Both the position numbers and the translations under genes were made by a program. The notes under the pieces were generated by a model. The model saw only the letters and a list, made by a program, of their open reading frames with translations. It did not search any database and was not told the DNA's origin. Below, piece by piece: positions 4,023 to 64,000 of a DNA stretch of 64,000 bases. The DNA is taken from contig CAVTPA010000001.1 in assembly GCA_963736545.1 (NCBI GenBank), forward strand, positions 1,665,660-1,729,659, given 5' to 3'. This stretch comes from an uncultured Chloroflexia bacterium (GTDB taxonomy: Bacteria > Chloroflexota > Limnocylindria > Limnocylindrales > CSP1-4). Numbering within the stretch: position 1 is the stretch's first letter; each line of letters starts with the position of its first letter.

Positions 4023-6854
4023 CTACTCGACCTCGAAGATCGCCGCCTCCAGCGCGCCGCCCATGCCGGGGTCCATGCCGTCCATCGGGTCGGCCGCAAG
4101 CGCCGTCCCCTCCGCGGGGACACACGAGAGCGCGTACGCGCCGGGCGTGTCGAGCGCGAAGCGGGCCGACTGCTCCTGGCCCGGGCGCGGGTTCAGCTCG
4201 ACCTTCGGAGCTCCCGGCAGCAGGCAGACGTACAGCGTGGCGGTGTCGTTCGTGAGGGTGACGAGCACCTGTTCGCCGGCCGCCACCCGGTAGGTGGGGG
4301 CGGGATCGCCCAGCGAGGAGGCGGCCACCGGCACCGGCACGGCGTTCGCGTCGAGCCAGCGGTTCACCCCGATGAAGCCCGCCGCGATCGCGACCGCGAT
4401 CCCCGCGATCACCGCGAGGTACGCCGCGTCCTTCACCCGCGTCCACGTCGCGTGGCGCGAGGCCGCCAGGACGGCTGCCGGCCGCGGGTCGTAGCCGCGA
4501 AGGCGGAGGGAGTTCGAGATGACCGACACCGACGAGAGGGCCATCGCCCCGGCGGCGAGCGCCGGGTTGAGCGTGATCCCGAAGGTCGGGTACAGGATCC
4601 CCATCGCGACCGGGATGAGGAGGACGTTGTAGGCGAAGGCCCAGAACAGGTTCTGGCGGATGACGGCCATCGTCCGCCGCGAGAGGGCGATCGCGGCGAC
4701 GACGCCGCGCGGATCGCCGCCGACGAGCGTGATGTCGGAGGCCTCGATGGCGACATCGGCGCCGGTCCCGATCGCCACGCCGAGATCGGCCGCGGCCAGC
4801 GCCGGTGCGTCGTTGATCCCGTCGCCGACCATGGCGACGACCTTGCCGCGGGCCCGCAGCTCCTCGACGACCGCCGCCTTGTCCCCGGGGAGCACCTGGG
4901 CCCGGACGCGCTCGACGGGGATCCCGACCTGGGCGGCGACGGACTCGGCGGTGGCCCGGTGGTCGCCGGTGACGAGCCAGGCTTCGATGCCGGCAGCTGC
5001 CAGCGCCCGCACGGCCTCGGCCGACTCCGCCTTGACGGGATCGGCGATCGCGAGCAGCCCGGCCGGCGCTCCGTCGACGGCGACGAAGACCGGGGTGTGG
5101 CCCTGCGCCGCATGGCCCTCGCCGGCGGCCCCCAGCTCGCCTAGGTCCACCCCGCGCTCGGCGAGGAAGCGGGCGCTGCCGACCAGGACGACACGGCCGT
5201 CGACGGTGGCCTCGGCGCCGCCGCCGGCCGTCGCCTCGAACGCGTCGCCGCCGGGGAACGCGAGGCCGCGGTCGCGTGCCGCCGCCAGGATCGCGCTCGC
5301 CAACGGGTGCTCCGAGCCGGCTTCGACGGCGGCGGCCAGGCGGAGGAGGTCGTCGGGGGCCAGCTCGCCGACGGGGACCACCTCGGCGACGGCCGGCTTG
5401 CCGCGCGTGAGCGTGCCCGTCTTGTCGAGGATCACCGCGGTCACGCGGTGGGCGTTCTCCAGGGCCTCGCCGCCGCGGACGAGGATCCCGGCCTCGGCGC
5501 CGCGCCCGGTGCCGACCATGATCGCGGTCGGCGTCGCGAGGCCCATCGCGCAGGGGCAGGCGATGATGACGACCGTGATGAAGGATGCGAGGGCGAGCGT
5601 GACCTTCGGCTCGGGCCCGAGGACGAACCAGAGCCCGAAGGTGAGCGCCGCGACGACGAGGACGATCGGCACGAAGATCCCGCTGATCCGGTCGGCCAGC
5701 CGCTGGATCGGGGCCTTGCTCCCCTGCGCGCGGCGGACCATCTCGACGATCTGGGCGAGGGCGGTCTCGCTCCCGACGCGGGTCGCCCGCATGACGAAGC
5801 TGCCGGTCGTGTTCAGGGTCGCCCCGATCACCTCGTCGCCCTTCGACTTCGTGACCGGCATCGCCTCGCCGGTGAGCATCGCCTCGTCGAGCGCGCTCGA
5901 GCCCTCGACGAGGACGCCGTCGACCGGCACCTTCTCGCCCGGGCGGACGCGCAGGAGGTCGCCCGGCTGGACCTGGTCGACCGGGATGTCGACGTCGCCG
6001 TCGGCCCGGACGACCCGGGCGGTCTTCGCCTGGAGCCCGACGAGCCGCCGGATCGCGCCGGTCGTGCGGCCCTTCGCCCGGCTTTCGAGCCACTTCCCGA
6101 GGAGGATGAGGCCGATGATGATCGTGGAGGAGTCGAAGTAGGTTTCGGCCGGGAGGCCGGCCCGCATGATCACCCCCGGGTACATCGTCACGAAGACCGA
6201 GTATCCCCAGGCCGCGCTCGTGCCGACGGCGACGAGCGTGCTCATGTTCGTGCCACCGTGGCGGGCCGTCCGCCAGGCCGCCTCGTAGAAGCGGCGCCCG
6301 GCCCAGAACTGGACGAACGTCGCCGGCCAGAGGGCCAGCCGGTTGACGTCGGCCATCGACAGCGGGAAGGGGCCGAACATCAGGACCATGATCCCGACCG
6401 CGACGCCGATGCTGACGGCCGACTGGATCCCGAGCTCGCGCTGCTCGCGGGCGCGCAGCCGCTCGGTCTCGTCGAGCTCCGAGTCGACGGCGGCGGTCCC
6501 GGTTGCGGCGGCCGCCGCTCGGCTGCCGCCGGCCGCCTGCGCCTCCGCCGCCTCGAGCGCGCCCGGGCGCACCTCGTAGCCCGCCTTCTCGATCGCCCCG
6601 ACGAGCTCGGCCCGCCCGACGGCGTCCGGCAGGAAGCGGATCGTGGCGACCTCGGTGGCGAGATTGACGTTCGCCTCGACGACGCCGTCCGTCTTGCGCA
6701 GGAATCGCTCGATCCGGTTGCTGCACGAGGCACACGTCATCCCGACGACCGGGAACGAGACCTCGGCCGGCTGCGCGGGGGACGCCGTGGCCGGGGCCGG
6801 CTCGACAGGCGGGCCCGGCTGGGCGAGTGGGGTGGTGGGGACGCTCGAGCTCAT
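4023..6854 (-). CDS. copA: copper-translocating P1B-type ATPase with an extra C-terminal TM helix and beta-sandwich (cupredoxin_1-like) domain
   Basis: N-terminal [18 protein letters not shown] motif ([13 protein letters not shown]), [15 protein letters not shown]. The last ~150 aa (nt 4023-4478) extend beyond the normal end of CopA. Confidence 0.9.
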
Positions 6855-6869
6855 ACTCCCCCGGAGTAT
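6853..6869. promoter_or_regulatory. perfect 7-3-7 palindrome ATACTCC-CCC-GGAGTAT overlapping the copA start codon; candidate CsoR-type operator
   Basis: Read directly. The arms are exact reverse complements, and the C/G-rich core flanked by ATAC/GTAT resembles CsoR operators (ATACCC..GGGTAT type) as I recall them. Confidence 0.35.
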
Positions 6870-6942
6870 ATCACCCGGCTGTCAAGAGGCAGTCGGTCGG
6901 ACGGGCCGGATGGACCTTGACGGCGTTCGTCGCCGGCGGACG

Positions 6943-7245
6943 ATGGTCACCATGGCCGAGAAGAAGACGGGCGACCCGAGGGACGGCGAGCAGCACGTCG
7001 GCGGTGCTCAATTCGTGCCGATCGCCGCCCCCATCTCGCACATCGCGATCATCGTTCCGGGACCGCTCACCGCCGGGCGGCCGAAGCCCGAGCCGGAAGA
7101 GCGCTGGACGCTCGCCCCGGGCCATCATCACGGGCCTGCGACCGACGCGAACGGCGAGGCACCCGCGGAGGCGGCGCCGGTCGAGCCGGTCCGGGGGATG
7201 GTGACCCGGCCGGCGGCGGAGGACTCCGAGCCCGAGCCGGCCTGA
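6943..7245 (+). CDS. hypothetical small His-containing protein divergent from copA
   Basis: High third-position G+C in this frame. Reads MVTMAEKKTGDPRDGEQH...APGHHHGP.... Alternative ATG at 6910. No known motif. Confidence 0.3.
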   Translation: MVTMAEKKTGDPRDGEQHVGGAQFVPIAAPISHIAIIVPGPLTAGRPKPEPEERWTLAPGHHHGPATDANGEAPAEAAPVEPVRGMVTRPAAEDSEPEPA

Positions 7246-53459: not shown

Positions 53460-53743
53460 GGCGAAGTATGAGCCGGATAGGCCAATTCCGTCAAACGCCC
53501 GTCCACCCATCCGGGCGTACGCCGTCCCAGCGCCACCCGCGAGCCGACGAGGCGTGCGGGCGCGTCGTGGCGTGCGGTCCGGCCGAGGCCGGGGCGCGAA
53601 TTCGGATACTCCGATCTCGCGCCCCGCGGCGAACGCCTCCTGCGCCCCGCGGCGAACGCCTCCTGTCCGCCGGCGTCCTGCCGCGCTACAGTGAGGGCCC
53701 TCTTCGGGCCGAAGCGCCGCGAGCGAACCGGGAGCGCCTGCCG

Positions 53744-54157
53744 ATGTCCGCCGACGACCTCTACCCCGCCGCCCTGGCCGTCCGGGAGCGCGCCTACGCC
53801 CCCTACTCCGGGTACCTCGTGGGGGCGGCGCTGCGGGACGAGCGCGGAGCCGTCCACGTCGCCGCGAACGTCGAGAACGCCGCCTACCCGCAGAGCCAGT
53901 GCGCCGAGGCCTCGGCGATCGGGGTCCTGGTGGCGGCTGGCGGCCGCAAGATCGTCGAGGTCTGCGTGGTCGCCGACGAGCGGAACGGGCTCCCCACGCC
54001 CTGCGGCGCCTGCCGCCAGCGCCTGCGGGAGTTCGCCGCGCTCGACGTCCCCGTTCACCTCGCCGGCCTCGGCGGGGTGATTCGCAGCGTGACGCTTTCC
54101 GACCTGCTCCCCTACAGCTTCGGGCCCGAGTTCCTCGGCAAGGAGGCCGTCCGATGA
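53744..54157 (+). CDS. cdd: cytidine deaminase
   Basis: Zinc motifs CAEASAI and PCGACRQ. GGGAG Shine-Dalgarno. ATGA overlap with the next gene. Confidence 0.85.
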   Translation: MSADDLYPAALAVRERAYAPYSGYLVGAALRDERGAVHVAANVENAAYPQSQCAEASAIGVLVAAGGRKIVEVCVVADERNGLPTPCGACRQRLREFAALDVPVHLAGLGGVIRSVTLSDLLPYSFGPEFLGKEAVR

Positions 54158-55045
54158 CGCACCCCGGGATCGACCCTGCCCGTCTCGCCGCCGACGTGCT
54201 CCGCGAGCACGCTCCCGGCTTCGCGCCGCGGCTCGGGATCGTGCTGGGCTCCGGCCTCGGCGGCCTCGCCGACACCCTCGACGACGCCGTCCGCCGTCCC
54301 CTACGCCGAGATCCCCGGCTTCCCGCCGTCCACGGTCCCCGGTCACGCCGGCCGGTTCGTCCTCGGCACGCTCGAGGGGGTGCCGGTCGCGTGCATGCAG
54401 GGCCGCTTCCACCTCTACGAGGGCCATCCACCGGCCGTCATCAAGCTGCCGATCCGGACGTTCGCCGCCCTTGGTGTCGAGGCGCTGCTGCTGACGAACG
54501 CGGCCGGCTCGCTCCGCGCCGAAGCGAAGCCGGGCAGCCTCATGCTCATCACCGACCACATCAACGCCATGTGGACGAACCCGCTGCTCGGGGCCAACGA
54601 CGACGAGTGGGGCGAGCGCTTCGTCGGCCTCGAGGACGCCTACGACCCGGCGCTGCGGGCACGGCTCGCGCGGATTGCCGGCGACCTGGGGATCCGGCTC
54701 CACGAGGGCGTCTACTGCGCACTCCTGGGACCGCTTTTCGAGACCCCGGCCGAGATCCGCGCGTACCGGGTGCTCGGCGCCGATGCCGTCGGGATGTCGA
54801 CCGTGCCCGAGGTCATCGTCGCCCGCCACGCCGGGATCCCGGTCGCCGCGATCAGCGCGATCACGAACCTCGCCGTCGGGATGAGCGACGAGCCGATCGA
54901 CCACGAGCAGACGCTCCGCGGCGCGGCGATGGCGGCGGCCGACCTCACTCGCCTCGTGCGGGCGTTCGTCGCCTCGTTCGCGGCGGAGGGCGAGCCCGCC
55001 GGCGCGCGAGACGCCGGCGCCGCGGGCGCCGCCGGGGAGGCCTGA
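54154..55045 (+). pseudogene. purine nucleoside phosphorylase (PNP/MTAP family) with one apparent +1 frameshift near 54291-54297
   Basis: N-terminus ..RLGIVLGSGLGGLADTLDDAV is in one frame. ..VPYAEIPGFPPSTVPGHAGRFVLGTLEGVPVACMQGRFHLYEGH... to the stop is in the next frame. Removing one C from GTCCGCCGTCCCC restores DDAVRVPYAEIPGF. Confidence 0.8.
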
Positions 55046-55048
55046 CCG

Positions 55049-56380
<1,332 letters not shown>

Positions 56381-57785: not shown

Positions 57786-60422
57786 ATGCAACGCCTCGAC
57801 CCGCCGCGAACGCTCGCCGCCCTCGCCCTCTCGATGACGCTGGCGGCATGCGGCACGGCCGCGACGCCCGCCGTGCCGACGACGCCCCCACCCCCGGCGT
57901 CACCGCCTGCGACGCCGGCCGCGCCGGAGACGCCGGCGGCCGACGGCGCGACCTGGGCTCCGGCCGGCGCCCTGGCGCTCGGCCGGGCAAGCACACACGT
58001 CGCGCTCCTCGGGGACGGCCGCGTTCTCGTCGTCGGCAATGACAACCTGTGCGAGCCGGGCGGCGCGTGGGAGAGCAGCGTCCTCGCCGAGCTCTACGAT
58101 CCGGCGACCGGGACGTGGGCCCCGGCCGGCAGCCTCAATGCGCCGCGCACCGACTTCGCCGCCGTGGCCCTGCCCGACGGCCGGGTGCTCGTGGCCGGGG
58201 GGATGACGTCGGCGGACCCGGTGGAGGGCGCGTTCGGCTCGTACTCGAGCGCGAAGCTCTACGACCCGGCGACGGGCACCTGGTCGGCGACGGGCCTGAT
58301 GGGCACGGCCCGCACCGAGCCCGTCGCGGCGCTCCTCCCCGACGGCACCGTCCTCGTCGCGGGCGGGGCGTACGTCGACGCGGCCGGAAACCGCGACCTG
58401 GCGAGCGCGGAGATCTACGACCCCGAGAGCGGCACGTGGTCGCCGACGGGCGACATGAGCACGGCGCGCCGGGGAGCCGAGTCGGTCACCCTCGCCGACG
58501 GGCGCGTCCTGGTCGTCGGGGCCGCCCACGGCAGCATCGCGTCGGCCGAGATCTACGACCCGGCGGCGGGCGCCTGGTCGCCGGCCGGCTCGCTCGCGCA
58601 GGCTCGGGATGACTTCGCCCTGACCGCGCTTCCCGACGGTGGCGCGCTCGTCGCGGGTGGCGCGGTCGAGGGCAGCGACATCCCGCAGGCGACGGCCACC
58701 GCCGAGCGCCTCGATCCGGTGACGCTGCGCTGGTCGCCCACCGCCGACATGAGCACGGCGGCCGCGAACCGGTCGGCGGTCCTCCTCGGCGATGGCCGCG
58801 TCCTCGTTGCCGGCGGCGTCACGATCACCGACGCCCGGGCGACGGGAGGCAGCACCGAGCGCCCGCCGCTTGCCGACGCGGAGCTGTACGACCCGGCGAC
58901 GGGCAGGTGGACCCCGGCGCCGTCGCTGCCGACGGCCCGCGAGGGCGGCACCTTCGTGACGCTGGCGGACCGGACGGTGCTCCTCGTCGGCGGCGACGGG
59001 GGCTACGTCGGGGAACCGATGATGCCCTGGTGCCCCGAGCCGGTCGCCGCGGCGGTCCGGTACGTGCCGGGCAACCTCGCCGACTTCCCGGAGGTGGCCC
59101 CGCCGGCCACGGTCGCGGTCGCCCGGTCGGACGTCCCCCGGGCCGAGGCGAAGCCGGCCCAGGCGAAGCGCGTCGCCGCGTCGATCACCGCGTTCGGCGT
59201 CGACCTCTACAAGCGCATGCTCGAGGACGGCACGATCGACGCGAAGGCGAATGCCGTCTTCTCGCCGACGAGCATCGCCCTCGCCCTCGGGATGGCGCGA
59301 GCCGGCGCGAACGGCGAGACCGCCGCCCAGATGGACGCCGTCCTGCACGTGGCCGGCTGGGAGGCCCTCGGCGTCGGGCTCAACGCCCTGGACCAGGCGC
59401 TGGCGTCGCGCGACGCGACGTGGAAGGACGGCGAGGGAACCACTCACGAGCTCGCCCTTCGGATCGCGAACGCCGCGTTCGCCCAGGAGGGCTGGCCGAT
59501 CCTGCAGCCCTACCTCGACCGGATCGCCGCGACATTCGGCTCGGGCCTGCGCCTCGTCGACTACGTCGGCGACACGGACGGTGCCCGAAGGACGATCAAC
59601 GCCTGGGTCAGCCGGAAGACCGAGAAGCGCATCCCCGAGCTCCTGACACCCCCCGATGTCACCGTCTACAGTCGCCTCTTCCTCGTCAACGCGATCTACC
59701 TCAAGGCGGGCTGGGCGAACCCGTTCCCGGCGGCGGCGACCCGGGCTCGGGCGTTCACCCGGCTGAACGGGTCGACCGTGAAGGTGCCGACGATGGTCCA
59801 GCAGGACACGATCCCGCTGGCGAGCGGCGCCGGCTGGACGGCGACCGAGCTCCGCTACGAGGCCGGCGACGCGAACTGGCGCACGCCCCTCGCGATGACC
59901 CTCATCCTCCCCGACGACCTCCGCTCGTTCGAGAGGGAGCTCGCCGCGGGTCGCCTGGCGACCGTCGTGCGAAAGCTCGACACCGCCCGCGATCACCTGG
60001 ACGACGAGGTCGCCTGCGTTCAGTACCCCGAGATGGCGTGCTGCGATCACCCGTACGACGTCCGCCTCTTCCTCCCCCGCTTCGCGGCGGAGACGAAGGC
60101 GGACCTGCTCCCGGAGCTGGCGTCCCTCGGCATGACGCTCGCCACCGACCCGCTCCAAGCGGACTTCTCCGGCATCACCTCGCCGAGCGAGCTCTACATC
60201 GCGAAGGTCATTCACCAGGCCAACATCGACGTCGACGAGAAGGGGACGGAGGCGGCCGCGGCGACCGCCGTCGGCATGTCCACGACCGGGGGCTGCGGGC
60301 CGAGCAACCCGCACCGGGTGATCACGGTCCGCTTCGACCGGCCGTTCTTCTTCGTCCTCCGCGACGTCCAGACGGGCGCGATCCTGTTCATGGGTCGCGT
60401 CGTCGATCCGTCGGCGACGTAG
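57786..60422 (+). CDS. lipoprotein fusing a 7-bladed Kelch-type beta-propeller to a full serpin domain
   Basis: Lipobox LTLAAC-G. Seven D/G-R-V-L-V-x-G-G blades with YDPxxGxW. Serpin motifs FSPTSIALALGMARAGANGETAAQM, hinge EKGTEAAAATAV, and C-terminal FDRPFFFVLRD..TGAILFMGRVVDP. Confidence 0.8.
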   Translation: MQRLDPPRTLAALALSMTLAACGTAATPAVPTTPPPPASPPATPAAPETPAADGATWAPAGALALGRASTHVALLGDGRVLVVGNDNLCEPGGAWESSVLAELYDPATGTWAPAGSLNAPRTDFAAVALPDGRVLVAGGMTSADPVEGAFGSYSSAKLYDPATGTWSATGLMGTARTEPVAALLPDGTVLVAGGAYVDAAGNRDLASAEIYDPESGTWSPTGDMSTARRGAESVTLADGRVLVVGAAHGSIASAEIYDPAAGAWSPAGSLAQARDDFALTALPDGGALVAGGAVEGSDIPQATATAERLDPVTLRWSPTADMSTAAANRSAVLLGDGRVLVAGGVTITDARATGGSTERPPLADAELYDPATGRWTPAPSLPTAREGGTFVTLADRTVLLVGGDGGYVGEPMMPWCPEPVAAAVRYVPGNLADFPEVAPPATVAVARSDVPRAEAKPAQAKRVAASITAFGVDLYKRMLEDGTIDAKANAVFSPTSIALALGMARAGANGETAAQMDAVLHVAGWEALGVGLNALDQALASRDATWKDGEGTTHELALRIANAAFAQEGWPILQPYLDRIAATFGSGLRLVDYVGDTDGARRTINAWVSRKTEKRIPELLTPPDVTVYSRLFLVNAIYLKAGWANPFPAAATRARAFTRLNGSTVKVPTMVQQDTIPLASGAGWTATELRYEAGDANWRTPLAMTLILPDDLRSFERELAAGRLATVVRKLDTARDHLDDEVACVQYPEMACCDHPYDVRLFLPRFAAETKADLLPELASLGMTLATDPLQADFSGITSPSELYIAKVIHQANIDVDEKGTEAAAATAVGMSTTGGCGPSNPHRVITVRFDRPFFFVLRDVQTGAILFMGRVVDPSAT

Positions 60423-60505
60423 CAGCGCACGCCACCGGGCGCCACGCCCACCGGGCCCGCCGGCGTCAGGGGCCCGCCGGCGCCCCGCCCACATGGCCGC
60501 CGGCG

Positions 60506-62008
60506 TCAGGCCCCCGGCCGGCGGGCCACCACCGAGAAGAGCCGCTCCCCGTCCCGGAGCGGCTCTCGCGTGAACTCGCGGTAGAAGGCGAGGTCGACGA
60601 AGCCGGCCGTCTCGAGGGCCGCGCGGGCGTCGTCGGGCGCGTACCCGCGGACCGCCGGCGAGCGGACCTGGTGCTGCGTCGCGACGACGGTACCGTCGCG
60701 CCGGAGCTCGTACGTCTCCTCGGTGTGCTCGAGGCGCGTCCCGGCCTCGACCCACGACCGGCTGATCCGGCGGATCCGCGACCCGTCGGGCAGGTCGGCC
60801 TCCTCGGTCCACGACTCGTCGGCAGCCTCGGCGAGCGAGTAGAACGGCAGGGCGAGCGTGCCGCCGGGGACGAGGTGGTCGTGGAAGCGGCGAAGGGCCT
60901 CGGCGGCCGCCTCCGGCTCGATCACGAGCTGGAACGAGGACGAGGGCACGATGATCGTCCGGTAGCGGCGCGGCAGGTCCATCGCCTCCATCGCCTGCTC
61001 GAAGAGGCGGCCCTCGACGTCGAGGCCGGCCGCCGCCGCCTTCGAGCGGCAGATCGCGAGCATCTCCCCGGAGATCTCCACGCCGTCGACGTCGATGCCG
61101 AGCCCGCGGTAGTCGAGGAGGAGCCGGCCGGTCCCGCAGCCGACGTCGAGGACGGGCTCGCCGCGCTCGCGGACGAGGTCGAAGTAGAAGGAGCGGTCCT
61201 CCCAGCCCGACGTGTCGCCGCGCAGCGGGTCCCAGGCGAGGGCCATGAGGCCGACGTACTCGAGGCCGGCGGCGTCGCCGGTCATGCGCTCGTGCCCCCC
61301 AGGTGCCCGGGCGCTGCCCGAGCCCCTCGCGGGCCGCGGCCGGAGCGCCGTCGCGGCGCCCCACGCGGCGAGAGCCATGCCGGCGGCGAAGATCGGCCAC
61401 GGGAAGTCGGTCGGGACGCCTCCCTCCGTCAGCAGGGGCGCGTTCCAGCAGAAGGCGGCGACGACGATCACGCCGCCGCCGATCCCAGCCGCCAGCTGGG
61501 CGGGCCCCGCCCGCACCGGCCGCCCCGCCCGCAGGCGCGCCGCAGCCGCGAGGCCGAACCCGATGAGCGCCACGCTCACCGCGACGGGCGACCAGACCGG
61601 CCCCGCCCACGGCACCGGGATGAGGAAGAGGAGGTCCCACGTCGCGAGCGAGGGCGGCCAGCCGACGAACACCCACAGCCAGGCGTAGTAGAGGATGTCC
61701 CAGGTCCCGAAGGCGACCGCCGTCCAGGCCAGCCGCTCGAGCGGGCTCCGCCCGGCGAGCCACCCGACGGCCGCCAGCATCGCGAGCGTCGCCGCCTCGC
61801 GACCGACCTCGATCGCGGCGAGGTCCCCCACGCCGGCCGGGTCCCGGAGGGGGAAGAGCACGCCGGTCTCCATCCCGAGGGCGCGCTGCAGGTAGACGAC
61901 GACGGCCGACTCGAGGTACGCCATCGCCACGGCGAACGCGATGACGACGACGGCCGTCGCGACGAGCCCGGCGCCGCGCCGGGGCATCTCAGGTGCCGGG
62001 GACCTCAC
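60506..62008 (-). CDS. polytopic membrane domain (Trp-rich, about 6 TM) in frame with a class I SAM-dependent methyltransferase
   Basis: One uninterrupted 500-aa ORF. Methyltransferase motif I VLDVGCGTGRL. An internal ATG at 61285 could give a separate 259-aa methyltransferase. Confidence 0.6.
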   Translation of the reverse strand: MRSPAPEMPRRGAGLVATAVVVIAFAVAMAYLESAVVVYLQRALGMETGVLFPLRDPAGVGDLAAIEVGREAATLAMLAAVGWLAGRSPLERLAWTAVAFGTWDILYYAWLWVFVGWPPSLATWDLLFLIPVPWAGPVWSPVAVSVALIGFGLAAAARLRAGRPVRAGPAQLAAGIGGGVIVVAAFCWNAPLLTEGGVPTDFPWPIFAAGMALAAWGAATALRPRPARGSGSARAPGGHERMTGDAAGLEYVGLMALAWDPLRGDTSGWEDRSFYFDLVRERGEPVLDVGCGTGRLLLDYRGLGIDVDGVEISGEMLAICRSKAAAAGLDVEGRLFEQAMEAMDLPRRYRTIIVPSSSFQLVIEPEAAAEALRRFHDHLVPGGTLALPFYSLAEAADESWTEEADLPDGSRIRRISRSWVEAGTRLEHTEETYELRRDGTVVATQHQVRSPAVRGYAPDDARAALETAGFVDLAFYREFTREPLRDGERLFSVVARRPGA

Positions 62009-62070
62009 TCCGTCAGTATGCCGCCGGCGGTCGACGAGAAGCGTCGGCGTCCGGGCCGCGAGGATGCGTC

Positions 62071-62541
62071 CTAGCCGGTCGGGGCGACCTCGCTCGGGGC
62101 TGGGCCGATCTCCTGCTCGACCTCCCGGTCGAGGCGGCGGAAGGTGAGGGGGGTCGTGCTGCCGCCCGCGGCGAGGAGCGCCTTCGCCAGGTCCTCGGTC
62201 GTCGACTCCAGGAGCTGCATGAACTGCGTCTCCGCGAACTCCCGCTTCGGATCCGTGGCGTCCGTCCCGAACACCGCGTCGAGCAGCTGGACGAGCATCT
62301 GGTCCATCGCGTAGAGGCGGAGGTGGACGAGCTCGTGGACGACGACCTCCTCGAGATGAGCCGGCTCCTGGCTCGCCCGGAGGAGGAGCACCGCCTTGCG
62401 GTCGTCGAGGTCGACCTTGACGTCTCCTGTCTTCCGCCAGGGCGTGTCGACGAGCCGGAGCTCGATGTCCCAGTCGGCGAGGCGGAGGGTCGGCTGCCAG
62501 CGCGCGAGGACCGCGCGCGCCTCGTCAGCGGTGATCGCCAT
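62071..62541 (-). CDS. hypothetical 156-aa protein with an HExxH motif
   Basis: VVVHELVHL. The start overlaps the end of the upstream BMC-P gene by 17 nt. Confidence 0.5.
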   Translation of the reverse strand: MAITADEARAVLARWQPTLRLADWDIELRLVDTPWRKTGDVKVDLDDRKAVLLLRASQEPAHLEEVVVHELVHLRLYAMDQMLVQLLDAVFGTDATDPKREFAETQFMQLLESTTEDLAKALLAAGGSTTPLTFRRLDREVEQEIGPAPSEVAPTG

Positions 62542-62806
62542 CGTCAGTCACCTCGTCGACGATGCCGACGACGACCGTGCGGATCGGGGCGCCGGGGGCC
62601 GCGAGGACCTGCCGCGCCCCGTTTCCCTCGTCGAGGAGGAGGACCATCTCCCCCGCCCCGGCGCCGACCGAGTCCACGGCGATCATGTAGCCGCCGGCGG
62701 GGTTGCCGCTCGCGTCGAGCAAGTCGCACAGGAGGAGCGTCCGCTCGTCGAAGGCGGGGTGGTCGATCGTCGAGACGACGGTCCCGACGACCCGGGCGAG
62801 CTTCAC
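62525..62806 (-). CDS. bacterial microcompartment vertex protein (BMC-P, EutN/CcmL family)
   Basis: MKLARVVGTVVSTIDHP...AVDSVGAGAGEMVLL..G.GAR...VVGIVD pattern. ATGA overlap with the upstream gene. Confidence 0.85.
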   Translation of the reverse strand: MKLARVVGTVVSTIDHPAFDERTLLLCDLLDASGNPAGGYMIAVDSVGAGAGEMVLLLDEGNGARQVLAAPGAPIRTVVVGIVDEVTDDGDHR

Positions 62807-63162
62807 GGCTTCGCCCTACGGCTGCGACGCCTGGGTGCCGGCGGCGCGGACGAGGCGGTCGCGGCCGGCGGTGCCACCACGGGATCGTCACCCGCCAGTG
62901 ACCGAACGGCGTCCACGATTCCGACGATCGCATGGTCGACCGGGACGAACGGATCGGGCATCGCCTGGGCGGCCTCGCGCGCGGCGACGAAGTAGACGAG
63001 CTCCCCGGGCCCGGCCATGTGGACGGCGTCGGCGGCGACGACCTGGCTGCCGATCGGGCGCAGCCGGCGGTCCAGCGGCTGGACGATGAGCAGCTTGATC
63101 CCGGTCAGGCCGGGCACCTTGACCGTGGCGACGACCGTGCCGGTGACGCGTCCGAGCTGCAT
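62803..63162 (-). CDS. bacterial microcompartment vertex protein (BMC-P) with a basic Pro/Ala-rich C-terminal tail
   Basis: MQLGRVTGTVVATVKVPGLTGIKLLIVQPLD...AADAVHMAGPGELV...AIVGIVD, followed by a 30-aa tail ..APPAPRRRSRRAKP. Confidence 0.85.
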   Translation of the reverse strand: MQLGRVTGTVVATVKVPGLTGIKLLIVQPLDRRLRPIGSQVVAADAVHMAGPGELVYFVAAREAAQAMPDPFVPVDHAIVGIVDAVRSLAGDDPVVAPPAATASSAPPAPRRRSRRAKP

Positions 63163-63164
63163 CG

Positions 63165-63863
63165 CTACCTCGTCGGCTTCACTGGGCGCGGCCGCGGGAC
63201 GATCGCGGCCGGCCCGCCGGGCTCGCGAACACGCACCGAGAACCGGGCGTCGGCGGCCAGGTTCTCCGCCATCTCGCCGTGGAGCTGGGGGATGACCCGC
63301 GAGACGAGGCCGGGCGTGCCGGCGATCCGCCCGGTCCCGGCCTCGACGGCCGCCTGCACCTCGGCGACGGGGCCGTCGAACAGGAGGTAGCCCTTGCCGC
63401 CGAGGTCGTCGGCGAGGCGCAGCTCGAGGAGCCGGACCCGGGCGCCCTTCACGCCTGCGTCGGCGGCCTCGATCGTCGCCGCGACCGTCGCGGTCTCGAT
63501 GATCCCGAGCGCCTCGCCGGCCGGCTCCGCCCGGGCGCCCCGCAGGGCCGCCACGACGTCGGTGTGGACGTTCGGCAGGAAGACGACCCCACGGACGGCC
63601 GCCGCTCCCACGTCTCGCCCCGCGTTGAGCGCCTCTTCGACGTCGGCGACGGCACCGCCGACGAGGACGAGGTACTTGCCGGGGTGGACCGTCCCGGCGC
63701 GGATGACGTCGATCGGGGCCTTCTTTGCCATCGCGTCGCCGGCCTCGATGCCCGCCGCGATCGAGTCGAGCTCCAGCAGCCCGAGGGCCGGCTCCAGCCC
63801 ACCGGCACCCGCCCGCGCCGCGGCGGGGATGGAGCGGTGGGCGGGAGGCCGGCCGGTCGGCAT
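63165..63863 (-). CDS. tandem-BMC-domain shell protein (BMC-T, PduT-like architecture)
   Basis: Two BMC-domain signatures (ALGLLELDSIAAGIEAGDAMAKKA.. and ALGIIETATVAATIEAADAGVKGA..). ATGA overlap with the upstream aldehyde dehydrogenase. Confidence 0.8.
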   Translation of the reverse strand: MPTGRPPAHRSIPAAARAGAGGLEPALGLLELDSIAAGIEAGDAMAKKAPIDVIRAGTVHPGKYLVLVGGAVADVEEALNAGRDVGAAAVRGVVFLPNVHTDVVAALRGARAEPAGEALGIIETATVAATIEAADAGVKGARVRLLELRLADDLGGKGYLLFDGPVAEVQAAVEAGTGRIAGTPGLVSRVIPQLHGEMAENLAADARFSVRVREPGGPAAIVPRPRPVKPTR

Positions 63864-64000
63864 CAGACGATCCGGAGGGCGCCGACGACCGTCACGCGCC
63901 GCTCGCGCGAGAACGTGCGCGGGCGGGTGAGGCCGTCGCCGGTCGGGCTGGCGATCGAGAACGAGGTGAAGCCCTCGCCGCCCTCGCCGAGCCCGGCGAC
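63863..64000 (-). CDS. acylating aldehyde dehydrogenase (EutE/PduP-like), C-terminal 45 aa only (gene continues beyond the window)
   Basis: Reads ..[43 protein letters not shown], matching my recollection of the GGEG.T.F.IA.PTGEG.T..R.F.R.RR..L...FRI tail of BMC aldehyde dehydrogenases. Confidence 0.6.

Follow-up and report, generated by a model that had tools for sequence, protein, structure and literature searches.

The sugar-phosphate-utilising (SPU) type of bacterial microcompartment (BMC) has been described in Axen 2014, Sutter 2021 (PMC8217296) and Dwyer 2024 (PMC11585597). According to the available part of the 2021 catalogue (PMC8217296), loci of its SPU3 subtype encode AldDh, DERA (pfam01791) and RpiB (pfam02502), each with an N-terminal encapsulation peptide, and a shell built from one BMC-H, a BMC-P triplet, a CcmP-like BMC-Tdp and a BMC-Ts with neither a PduS partner nor a pore cysteine. 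In the same text, every SPU locus carries at least three BMC-P genes, of which the grey and orange clade members are always neighbours, and SPU3 is on record in Chloroflexi besides other phyla. PTAC occurs in nearly all SPU1, SPU4 and SPU7 loci and is unlisted for SPU3 in what is accessible of these accounts (PMC8217296, PMC11585597), and the SPU RPIs are all reported to carry Asp in place of Cys66 (PMC11585597). Here we analysed a stretch of 64,000 nt from an uncultured Chloroflexia bacterium (contig CAVTPA010000001.1), referred to below as the window, and in particular its last part, positions 62071-64000. We are highly confident that this part forms the 3' end of an operon of SPU3 type from a Chloroflexota bacterium, and that the gene which closes it, encoding a small protein with an HExxH motif, is a lineage-specific, non-core addition.

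The five minus-strand open reading frames (ORFs) of this region have the identities and coordinates assigned to them in an original prediction made from the letters alone, as shown by matches to PRK15398, PF00936 and PF03319 (Table 1). That prediction had proposed a search of 62525-63863 with the two shell families, and matches were obtained for all three shell genes; the domain E-values for these proteins and for AldDh are far outside chance. The AldDh gene, an acylating aldehyde dehydrogenase, is truncated by the window edge, and a complete 484-aa PF00171 gene is found in the near-identical contig L001. The proposal of a single operon is upheld, and the genes are tightly coupled. The AldDh and BMC-Ts genes overlap by 1 nt, a 2-nt gap separates the BMC-Ts gene from the first pentamer gene (BMC-P 'b'), the latter overlaps the second (BMC-P 'c') by 4 nt, and this in turn overlaps the HExxH gene by 17 nt. 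The gap and the 17-nt overlap stand as first read, whereas the supposed 'ATGA' overlaps are in fact TGATG (1 nt) and GTGA (4 nt). Within the tandem-domain BMC-Ts, residues 25-199 resemble PduT structures (E 2.5e-33); the protein has no cysteine, and it carries a variable 24-aa N-terminal extension and a variable, basic, Pro-rich C-terminal extension of about 33 aa (charge +3.8). BMC-P 'b' finds only distant relatives among the solved BMC-P structures, the best of them at E 5.6e-13, and BMC-P 'c' is acidic (pI 4.3).

The sequence past nt 64000 was taken from three contigs used as stand-ins for the window's own contig, L001, L002 and L123, which over 10.8-11.9 kb are 99.5%, 99.1% and 99.0% identical to the window, respectively; identical BMC-T, pentamer and HExxH proteins are present in ENA assemblies of three samples. 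In all three contigs the order is a SorC-type regulator, an RpiB-type protein, two DERA genes, BMC-Tdp, BMC-H, BMC-P and AldDh. The signature enzyme and BMC-H expected past nt 64000 are therefore there, as DERA, RpiB and one BMC-H, and the DERA match to PF01791 is seen as well in L002, L120 and L123. The PTAC expected alongside them was not recovered: none (PF06130) is among the called genes of L001, L002, L120 and L123, and in the near-identical contigs the 10 kb flanking the locus on each side contain neither PTAC nor a PduS-type gene. In RpiB, Asp118 aligns to Cys66 of the E. coli protein, so that the aspartate of the SPU enzymes is found here too. The Pfam domains of RpiB and DERA begin at residues 56 and 79, so both proteins carry N-terminal extensions. 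AldDh (484 aa) starts with MDEREIAEIIERVRRRV followed by a Gly/Pro linker, and this helix has a hydrophobic moment of 0.85 and is encapsulation-peptide-like by pattern only. Because a hydrophobic-moment scan for encapsulation peptides flagged the AldDh helix and no other, the claims made for such peptides rest on domain offsets and the literature.

The shell components agree with the same assignment. BMC-H is present in a single copy, and BMC-Ts is cysteine-free and lacks a PduS partner. The nearest solved relative of BMC-Tdp is CcmP (E 4.3e-87), followed by the trimers of Haliangium ochraceum (HO; E 1e-67 to 1e-72) and CsoS1D (E 8.6e-51), its clade being given here by best solved relatives and not by tree position. 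Three PF03319 genes make up a triplet: the one upstream of AldDh finds its match in the canonical vertex pentamer of H. ochraceum (5V74 shell, E 4e-32), and the two in the window, which overlap by 4 nt, are divergent from all solved BMC-P (best E 1e-12 to 1e-17). These adjacent pentamers are the paired 'special' members of the SPU BMC-P triplet. Two consecutive pentamer genes had been taken as unusual, a view that does not hold, given that, in the accessible catalogue text, three or more BMC-P belong to every SPU locus and two of them always lie together (PMC8217296).

The locus thus resembles SPU3 in its AldDh, DERA and RpiB with N-terminal extensions, in the Cys66-to-Asp change of its RPI, in its occurrence in Chloroflexi, and in a shell with one BMC-H, a BMC-P triplet including an adjacent pair, a CcmP-like Tdp and a Ts without cysteine or PduS, all without PTAC. 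It differs as follows: a SprT-like HExxH gene has been added in the present clade, one of the paired pentamers bears a linker and a basic motif, and the present strain has two DERA genes, 68% identical and only one of them extended, where related metagenome-assembled genomes (MAGs) have one. In L001 the tandem DERA genes occupy 5531-7112, the first with a 78-aa N-terminal extension and the second without; this extension may be an encapsulation peptide. The related MAGs with one DERA only are L003, L004, L006, L026 and L030. A further difference is the regulator, which is of SorC type here and of GntR type in the SPU6 locus that has been characterised. As for other systems, the HO model shell is similar in having one BMC-H, a BMC-P triplet, BMC-Ts and a CcmP/CsoS1D-like BMC-Tdp, but an HO locus typically has two BMC-Tdp and, at the main locus, neither DERA nor RpiB, as far as the available catalogue text goes (PMC8217296).

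Table 1. Features of the operon, of its upstream part as seen in near-identical contigs, and of the nearby nucleoside cluster. Positions refer to the window unless a contig is named.
Feature	Position	Strand	Match or remark
SorC-type regulator	first in upstream order		PF04198
RpiB-type protein	second in upstream order		PF02502, E 9.5e-51
DERA	L001:5531-6421		PF01791, E 9.5e-19
BMC-Tdp, 209 aa	after DERA		CsoS1D_N/BMC-Tdp
BMC-H, 102 aa, single copy	after BMC-Tdp		PF00936, E 1e-29
Third BMC-P, 95 aa	between BMC-H and AldDh		PF03319
AldDh C-terminus, last 45 codons and stop	63863-64000	minus	NCBIfam PRK15398, model positions 421-465 of 465, E 2.4e-14
BMC-Ts, tandem-BMC trimer, 232 aa	63165-63863	minus	PF00936 twice, E 1.6e-34
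BMC-P 'b', EutN/CcmL pentamer, 119 aa	62803-63162	minus	PF03319 over residues 1-84, E 2.4e-25
BMC-P 'b' tail, residues 85-119	62806-62910	minus	Pro/Ala-rich linker and terminal basic motif
BMC-P 'c', EutN/CcmL pentamer, 93 aa, GTG start	62525-62806	minus	PF03319, E 4.5e-24
HExxH protein, 156 aa	62071-62541	minus	HELVH at residues 69-73; no Pfam match
cdd-PNP-PYNP nucleoside-catabolism cluster	53468-56380	plus	about 6 kb from the BMC operon, opposite strand

We then considered the HExxH protein itself. Its HELVH codons lie at 62323-62337 and the codon of a conserved distal glutamate, Glu112, at 62206-62208; the protein is acidic (pI 4.66, net charge -11). We found 233 homologues, the closest 120 of which are 71-99% identical and belong to Chloroflexota wherever the source names the organism. 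The family is small, with only 166 clusters at E <=1e-3 in a scan of 1.84 billion cluster representatives. Across 28 homologues of 23-82% identity, conservation is complete at H69 and E70 and at least 90% at H73 and E112; this is the gluzincin-type pattern of conserved H, E and H with a downstream E. The AlphaFold2 model (pLDDT 94.8) consists of a helix, three strands, the HExxH helix and three further helices. With Foldseek, this model matched SprT-like or unnamed small phage proteins (E 2e-6, TM up to 0.68) and, among solved structures, PprI/IrrE, jannalysin/selecase and 6mdx (E 2e-3 to 7e-3, TM 0.3-0.45); the 6mdx entry, labelled 'protease dependent DPC repair', we take to be SPRTN. Profile searches point in the same direction below threshold. 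The window protein scored 12.2 bits (E 0.17) against PF10263 SprT-like, under the 25.6-bit gathering threshold; sub-threshold SprT-like matches are found in 17 of the 28 family members (best E 9.5e-4), and the family also gives a sub-threshold profile match to the minigluzincin MJ1213. The match to TIGR04267, an aKG-HExxH peptide beta-hydroxylase, reached 24.2 bits against a 40-bit cut-off and covered the N-terminal half of the model only. The protein is the product of a real gene and, judging from sequence and predicted structure, a minimal zincin-like putative metallopeptidase, SprT-like or minigluzincin-like, of a small unnamed family. It shares with SprT-like, minigluzincin and M78 (IrrE) zincins the predicted topology, the HExxH helix and later helices with a conserved Glu, but it falls under every curated family threshold, is acidic, lacks a zinc-ribbon or DNA-binding module and is a peptidase only putatively. 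A phage or defence origin of the family was considered and rejected, since PHROGs matches were inconsistent (best family in 3 of 28 members, E 0.003).

The HExxH gene lies directly 3' of the pentamer pair in eight genome or assembly loci (L001-L004, L006, L026, L029 and L030), where the proteins are 67-99% identical. At 70% identity, a Chloroflexi MAG (L005) has the gene alone with no BMC genes near. Some 20 loci in MAGs of Bacillota, where the protein is 40-55% identical, also show no BMC genes and have varied neighbourhoods. A metagenome locus scan made with a 7-sequence alignment gave the same picture. Among the 80 loci examined, BMC genes precede the HExxH gene in about 20 and four more are deletion derivatives, all at about 70% identity or more; BMC genes are absent from four loci at 67-71% identity and from about 50 at 60% or less. 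Genome MAGs and metagenomes together provide about 75 other family loci without BMC neighbours. In five distant members the neighbours are RecX, GGT, Q_salvage or dehydratase genes, or the contigs are too short to show any. A neighbourhood theme shared by the distant members was looked for and discarded (RecX, TGT, Q_salvage, GGT, 2-hydroxyacyl-CoA dehydratase, HDAC, AraC, CutA1), and the two queuosine-related neighbours among these look like coincidence.

Moreover, the gene is absent from two sister SPU3 loci, L121 and L122, whose AldDh is 85% identical. The operon of L121 stops after the last pentamer. In L122, an unrelated 236-aa ORF (L122:8623-9333) sits at the HExxH position, sharing 4 nt with the last BMC-P gene; neither Pfam nor the window offers a match for it, and its C-terminal sequence we take, from its appearance, to be GNAT-like. 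The 3' end of the operon seems to take variable genes, namely the mini-zincin, the 236-aa ORF, or none. Since the HExxH gene is BMC-linked in one narrow clade only and missing from the sister SPU3 loci, it is a lineage-specific 3' add-on and not a conserved BMC component. The genomic contexts suggest that it joined the 3' end of the operon in one Chloroflexota sub-lineage, where it would be translationally coupled to the last pentamer gene without being a core part. It is probably co-expressed with the BMC. BMC-linked and unlinked copies do not differ by any additional N- or C-terminal segment, and because the linked copies have no terminal extension, there is no encapsulation peptide on the HExxH protein. 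A promoter and terminator scan of the gap between the HExxH gene and the downstream methyltransferase gene returned nothing, a result that is uninformative at the present GC content.

The four metagenome contigs that appear to be deletion derivatives of an SPU3 locus (L048, L049, L050 and L079) show two forms, each on two contigs. In one, about 3.9 kb are lost, from Tdp through the last BMC-P together with most of RpiB, leaving SorC-DERA-HExxH; in the other, about 3.5 kb, from the middle of Tdp through the last BMC-P, leaving DERA-Tdp'-HExxH. Either real shell-less variants or artefacts of assembly would account for them. Frameshifts are also seen in some assemblies, in the HExxH gene (L026:10001-10413), in the tailed pentamer (L006:9356-9631) and in several operon genes of L123; these are probably long-read consensus errors, not pseudogenes.

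The pentamer tail is the most interesting remaining point. The Arg/Pro tail initially noticed on one pentamer is real: it comprises residues 85-119 of BMC-P 'b', has a net charge of +4.8, ends in APRRRSRRAKP (62806-62838, minus strand), and is predicted to be disordered over residues 85-107 (pLDDT <50). Orthologues have Pro/Ala linkers of anything from 0 to about 65 aa, yet the terminal AP[KR]RRxRRx[KR]P is conserved. As the terminal motif is conserved across variable linkers, the tail is not GC-driven junk, and the alignments suggest that this end is a conserved short linear motif of the lineage's shell. The motif also moves. In L121 (8282-8734) and L122 (8282-8626) it is on the other pentamer of the pair, for example as APRRRSRRRST; in L004 (9637-10017) and L030 (9600-10004) both paired pentamers are tailed; and in some strains BMC-Ts has a basic Pro-rich end. 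Co-occurrence of the tail with the HExxH gene was considered and rejected, since L121 carries the motif alone, and the two are therefore uncoupled. In the descriptions as available, other C-terminally extended shell proteins, such as the BUF2 BMC-H with its 80-aa Pro- and charge-rich tail, PduK and EutK, likewise have a flexible extension on a conserved shell domain; however, these extensions are on hexamers, whereas here a short conserved basic motif is found on a pentamer and swaps between paired paralogues. No description of a basic motif on BMC-P was found in the accessible part of the catalogue supplement (PMC8217296) or in a literature search, and its novelty is unproven. For BMC specialists, a basic motif that moves between the unexplained 'extra' pentamers may be of interest as a concrete handle for testing why three BMC-P genes are retained in SPU, HO and ACI loci.

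Several points weigh against the SPU3 assignment with a non-core HExxH gene. The subtype was assigned from gene content and nearest solved structures and not by the colour-clade HMMs of the catalogue; DERA, RpiB, BMC-H and the third BMC-P were read in near-identical strains and not in the window's own contig; and experimental tests of SPU function are limited to SPU6 enzymes (PMC11585597). As for the HExxH gene, relatives preserve its overlap of 17 nt or 4 nt with the BMC-P gene upstream despite rearranged downstream genes, and this conserved stop-start overlap leaves room for a BMC-related role. The most serious alternative builds on this last point. The HExxH protein would be a dedicated BMC accessory protease that trims the pentamer and BMC-Ts tails or encapsulation-peptide linkers, or clears acetaldehyde-damaged or cross-linked proteins, and the locus would then be a functionally new SPU variant. 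Indeed, the overlap is found in all clade members examined, the pentamer/HExxH junction is retained while the genes downstream of it vary, the fold is similar to those of SprT/SPRTN-type and IrrE-type proteases, and a net charge of -11 faces strongly basic shell tails. Proteases of the SPRTN/Wss1 type act on aldehyde-induced cross-links. Against this reading, an acidic protein without a DNA-binding module is a poor fit for a DNA-protein cross-link protease. The synteny is kept only across shallow divergence (about 80% DNA identity), the sister SPU3 loci have the same basic-tail motif without the HExxH gene, the BMC-linked copies have no encapsulation peptide and are unextended relative to non-BMC homologues, and BMC neighbours are missing around some 75 other members of the family. 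Altogether, we regard an accessory protease as unlikely.

A related and still less likely idea gives the tail the leading part: the SPU3 shell of this Chloroflexota lineage would have acquired an accessory module not described before. BMC-P C-termini face the cytosol, and the tail peptide, always borne by one or both of the paired 'special' pentamers, would therefore be exposed. It might then serve as a docking or anchoring signal towards an acidic partner, nucleic acid, polyphosphate or a membrane, with the co-translated acidic zincin of this sub-clade binding or processing it. We put this forward as a speculation with little chance of being right; if true, it would provide a function for the long-unexplained extra BMC-P paralogues and the first protease assigned to a metabolosome.

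In another scenario, the HExxH protein would control BMC expression as a regulatory protease in the style of IrrE/ImmA, by cutting a transcription factor such as the SorC regulator of the operon. PprI/IrrE is the top solved-structure match, and CapP and M. tuberculosis 'transcriptional regulator' entries are also among the matches; an HExxH motif with a distal Glu is the ligand pattern of M78 (IrrE-family) peptidases and is present here. These structure matches are weak, however (E 2e-3, TM 0.41), and no Xre-type HTH partner adjoins the gene, here or in the other contexts of the family. The deletion variants do retain SorC, DERA and the HExxH gene, but they retain everything downstream, hence nothing specific to the HExxH gene, and the sister loci have the same SorC regulator without it. 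Such a regulatory role is very improbable. Weakest of all is the notion, advanced in the original prediction, that the window partly captures an undescribed BMC type: the available part of the published SPU3 description (PMC8217296) is indeed silent on the HExxH gene and the tailed pentamers, so that the match to a named type does not extend to them, but all core enzymes and shell components fit SPU3, including the triplet, the CcmP-like Tdp, the Cys-free Ts, the lack of PTAC and the phylum, and because the full content fits this named subtype we give the notion almost no credence. We therefore return to the assignment made above: the locus is one more SPU3 microcompartment, of a type already catalogued in Chloroflexi, and not a candidate new system.

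For an SPU3 compartment, a metabolic scheme may be drawn by analogy with the published SPU model. Deoxyribose 5-phosphate from nucleoside breakdown would enter the shell, where the N-terminally extended DERA would cleave it, giving glyceraldehyde 3-phosphate plus acetaldehyde. The confined acetaldehyde would be turned into acetyl-CoA by AldDh, which likewise has an encapsulation-peptide-like N-terminal helix; the locus has no PTAC, as is typical of SPU3. The window also contains a cluster for cytidine deaminase (PF00383/PF08211), purine/uridine phosphorylase (PF01048) and pyrimidine-nucleoside phosphorylase (PF00591/PF02885/PF07831). Synteny of these cdd-PNP-PYNP genes extends to L029 and L030, and in L122 they lie immediately beside the operon. 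The cluster is consistent with the role proposed for SPU compartments in relation to deoxyribose and nucleic acids.

Downstream of the HExxH gene, the 500-aa product of 60506-62008 (minus strand) has a polytopic membrane region as its N-terminal half, joined to a class I SAM methyltransferase (PF13649) as its C-terminal half, the latter weakly matching a daptide-type methyltransferase. Relatives keep only the N-terminal membrane half beside the operon, and in L030 this half is a separate 258-aa gene past an inserted heparinase gene; the 60506-62008 gene is probably outside the BMC operon. A functional link between HExxH proteins and methyltransferases was considered and rejected on two grounds: the flanking methyltransferases of the window and of Halobacteroidaceae loci have no detectable homology by tblastn at E 1e-3, and relatives retain only the membrane domain of the downstream gene. 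Two long ORFs of this region, one of 1287 aa (57900-61763, minus strand) and one of 1055 aa (58907-62074, plus strand), are antisense or out of frame to real genes, and these Arg/Pro/Gly-rich frames are high-GC artefacts; the L001 assembly annotates a 1300-aa fusion that is an artefact of the same kind. Further away, 57786-60422 (plus strand) encodes an 878-aa protein whose N-terminal signal is lipoprotein-like (LAAC) and which has Kelch beta-propeller repeats as well as a C-terminal serpin domain (PF00079, E 2e-85). A Kelch-serpin fusion is unusual, and the gene calls of L002, L029 and L030 give the serpin a gene of its own, of 434-485 aa.

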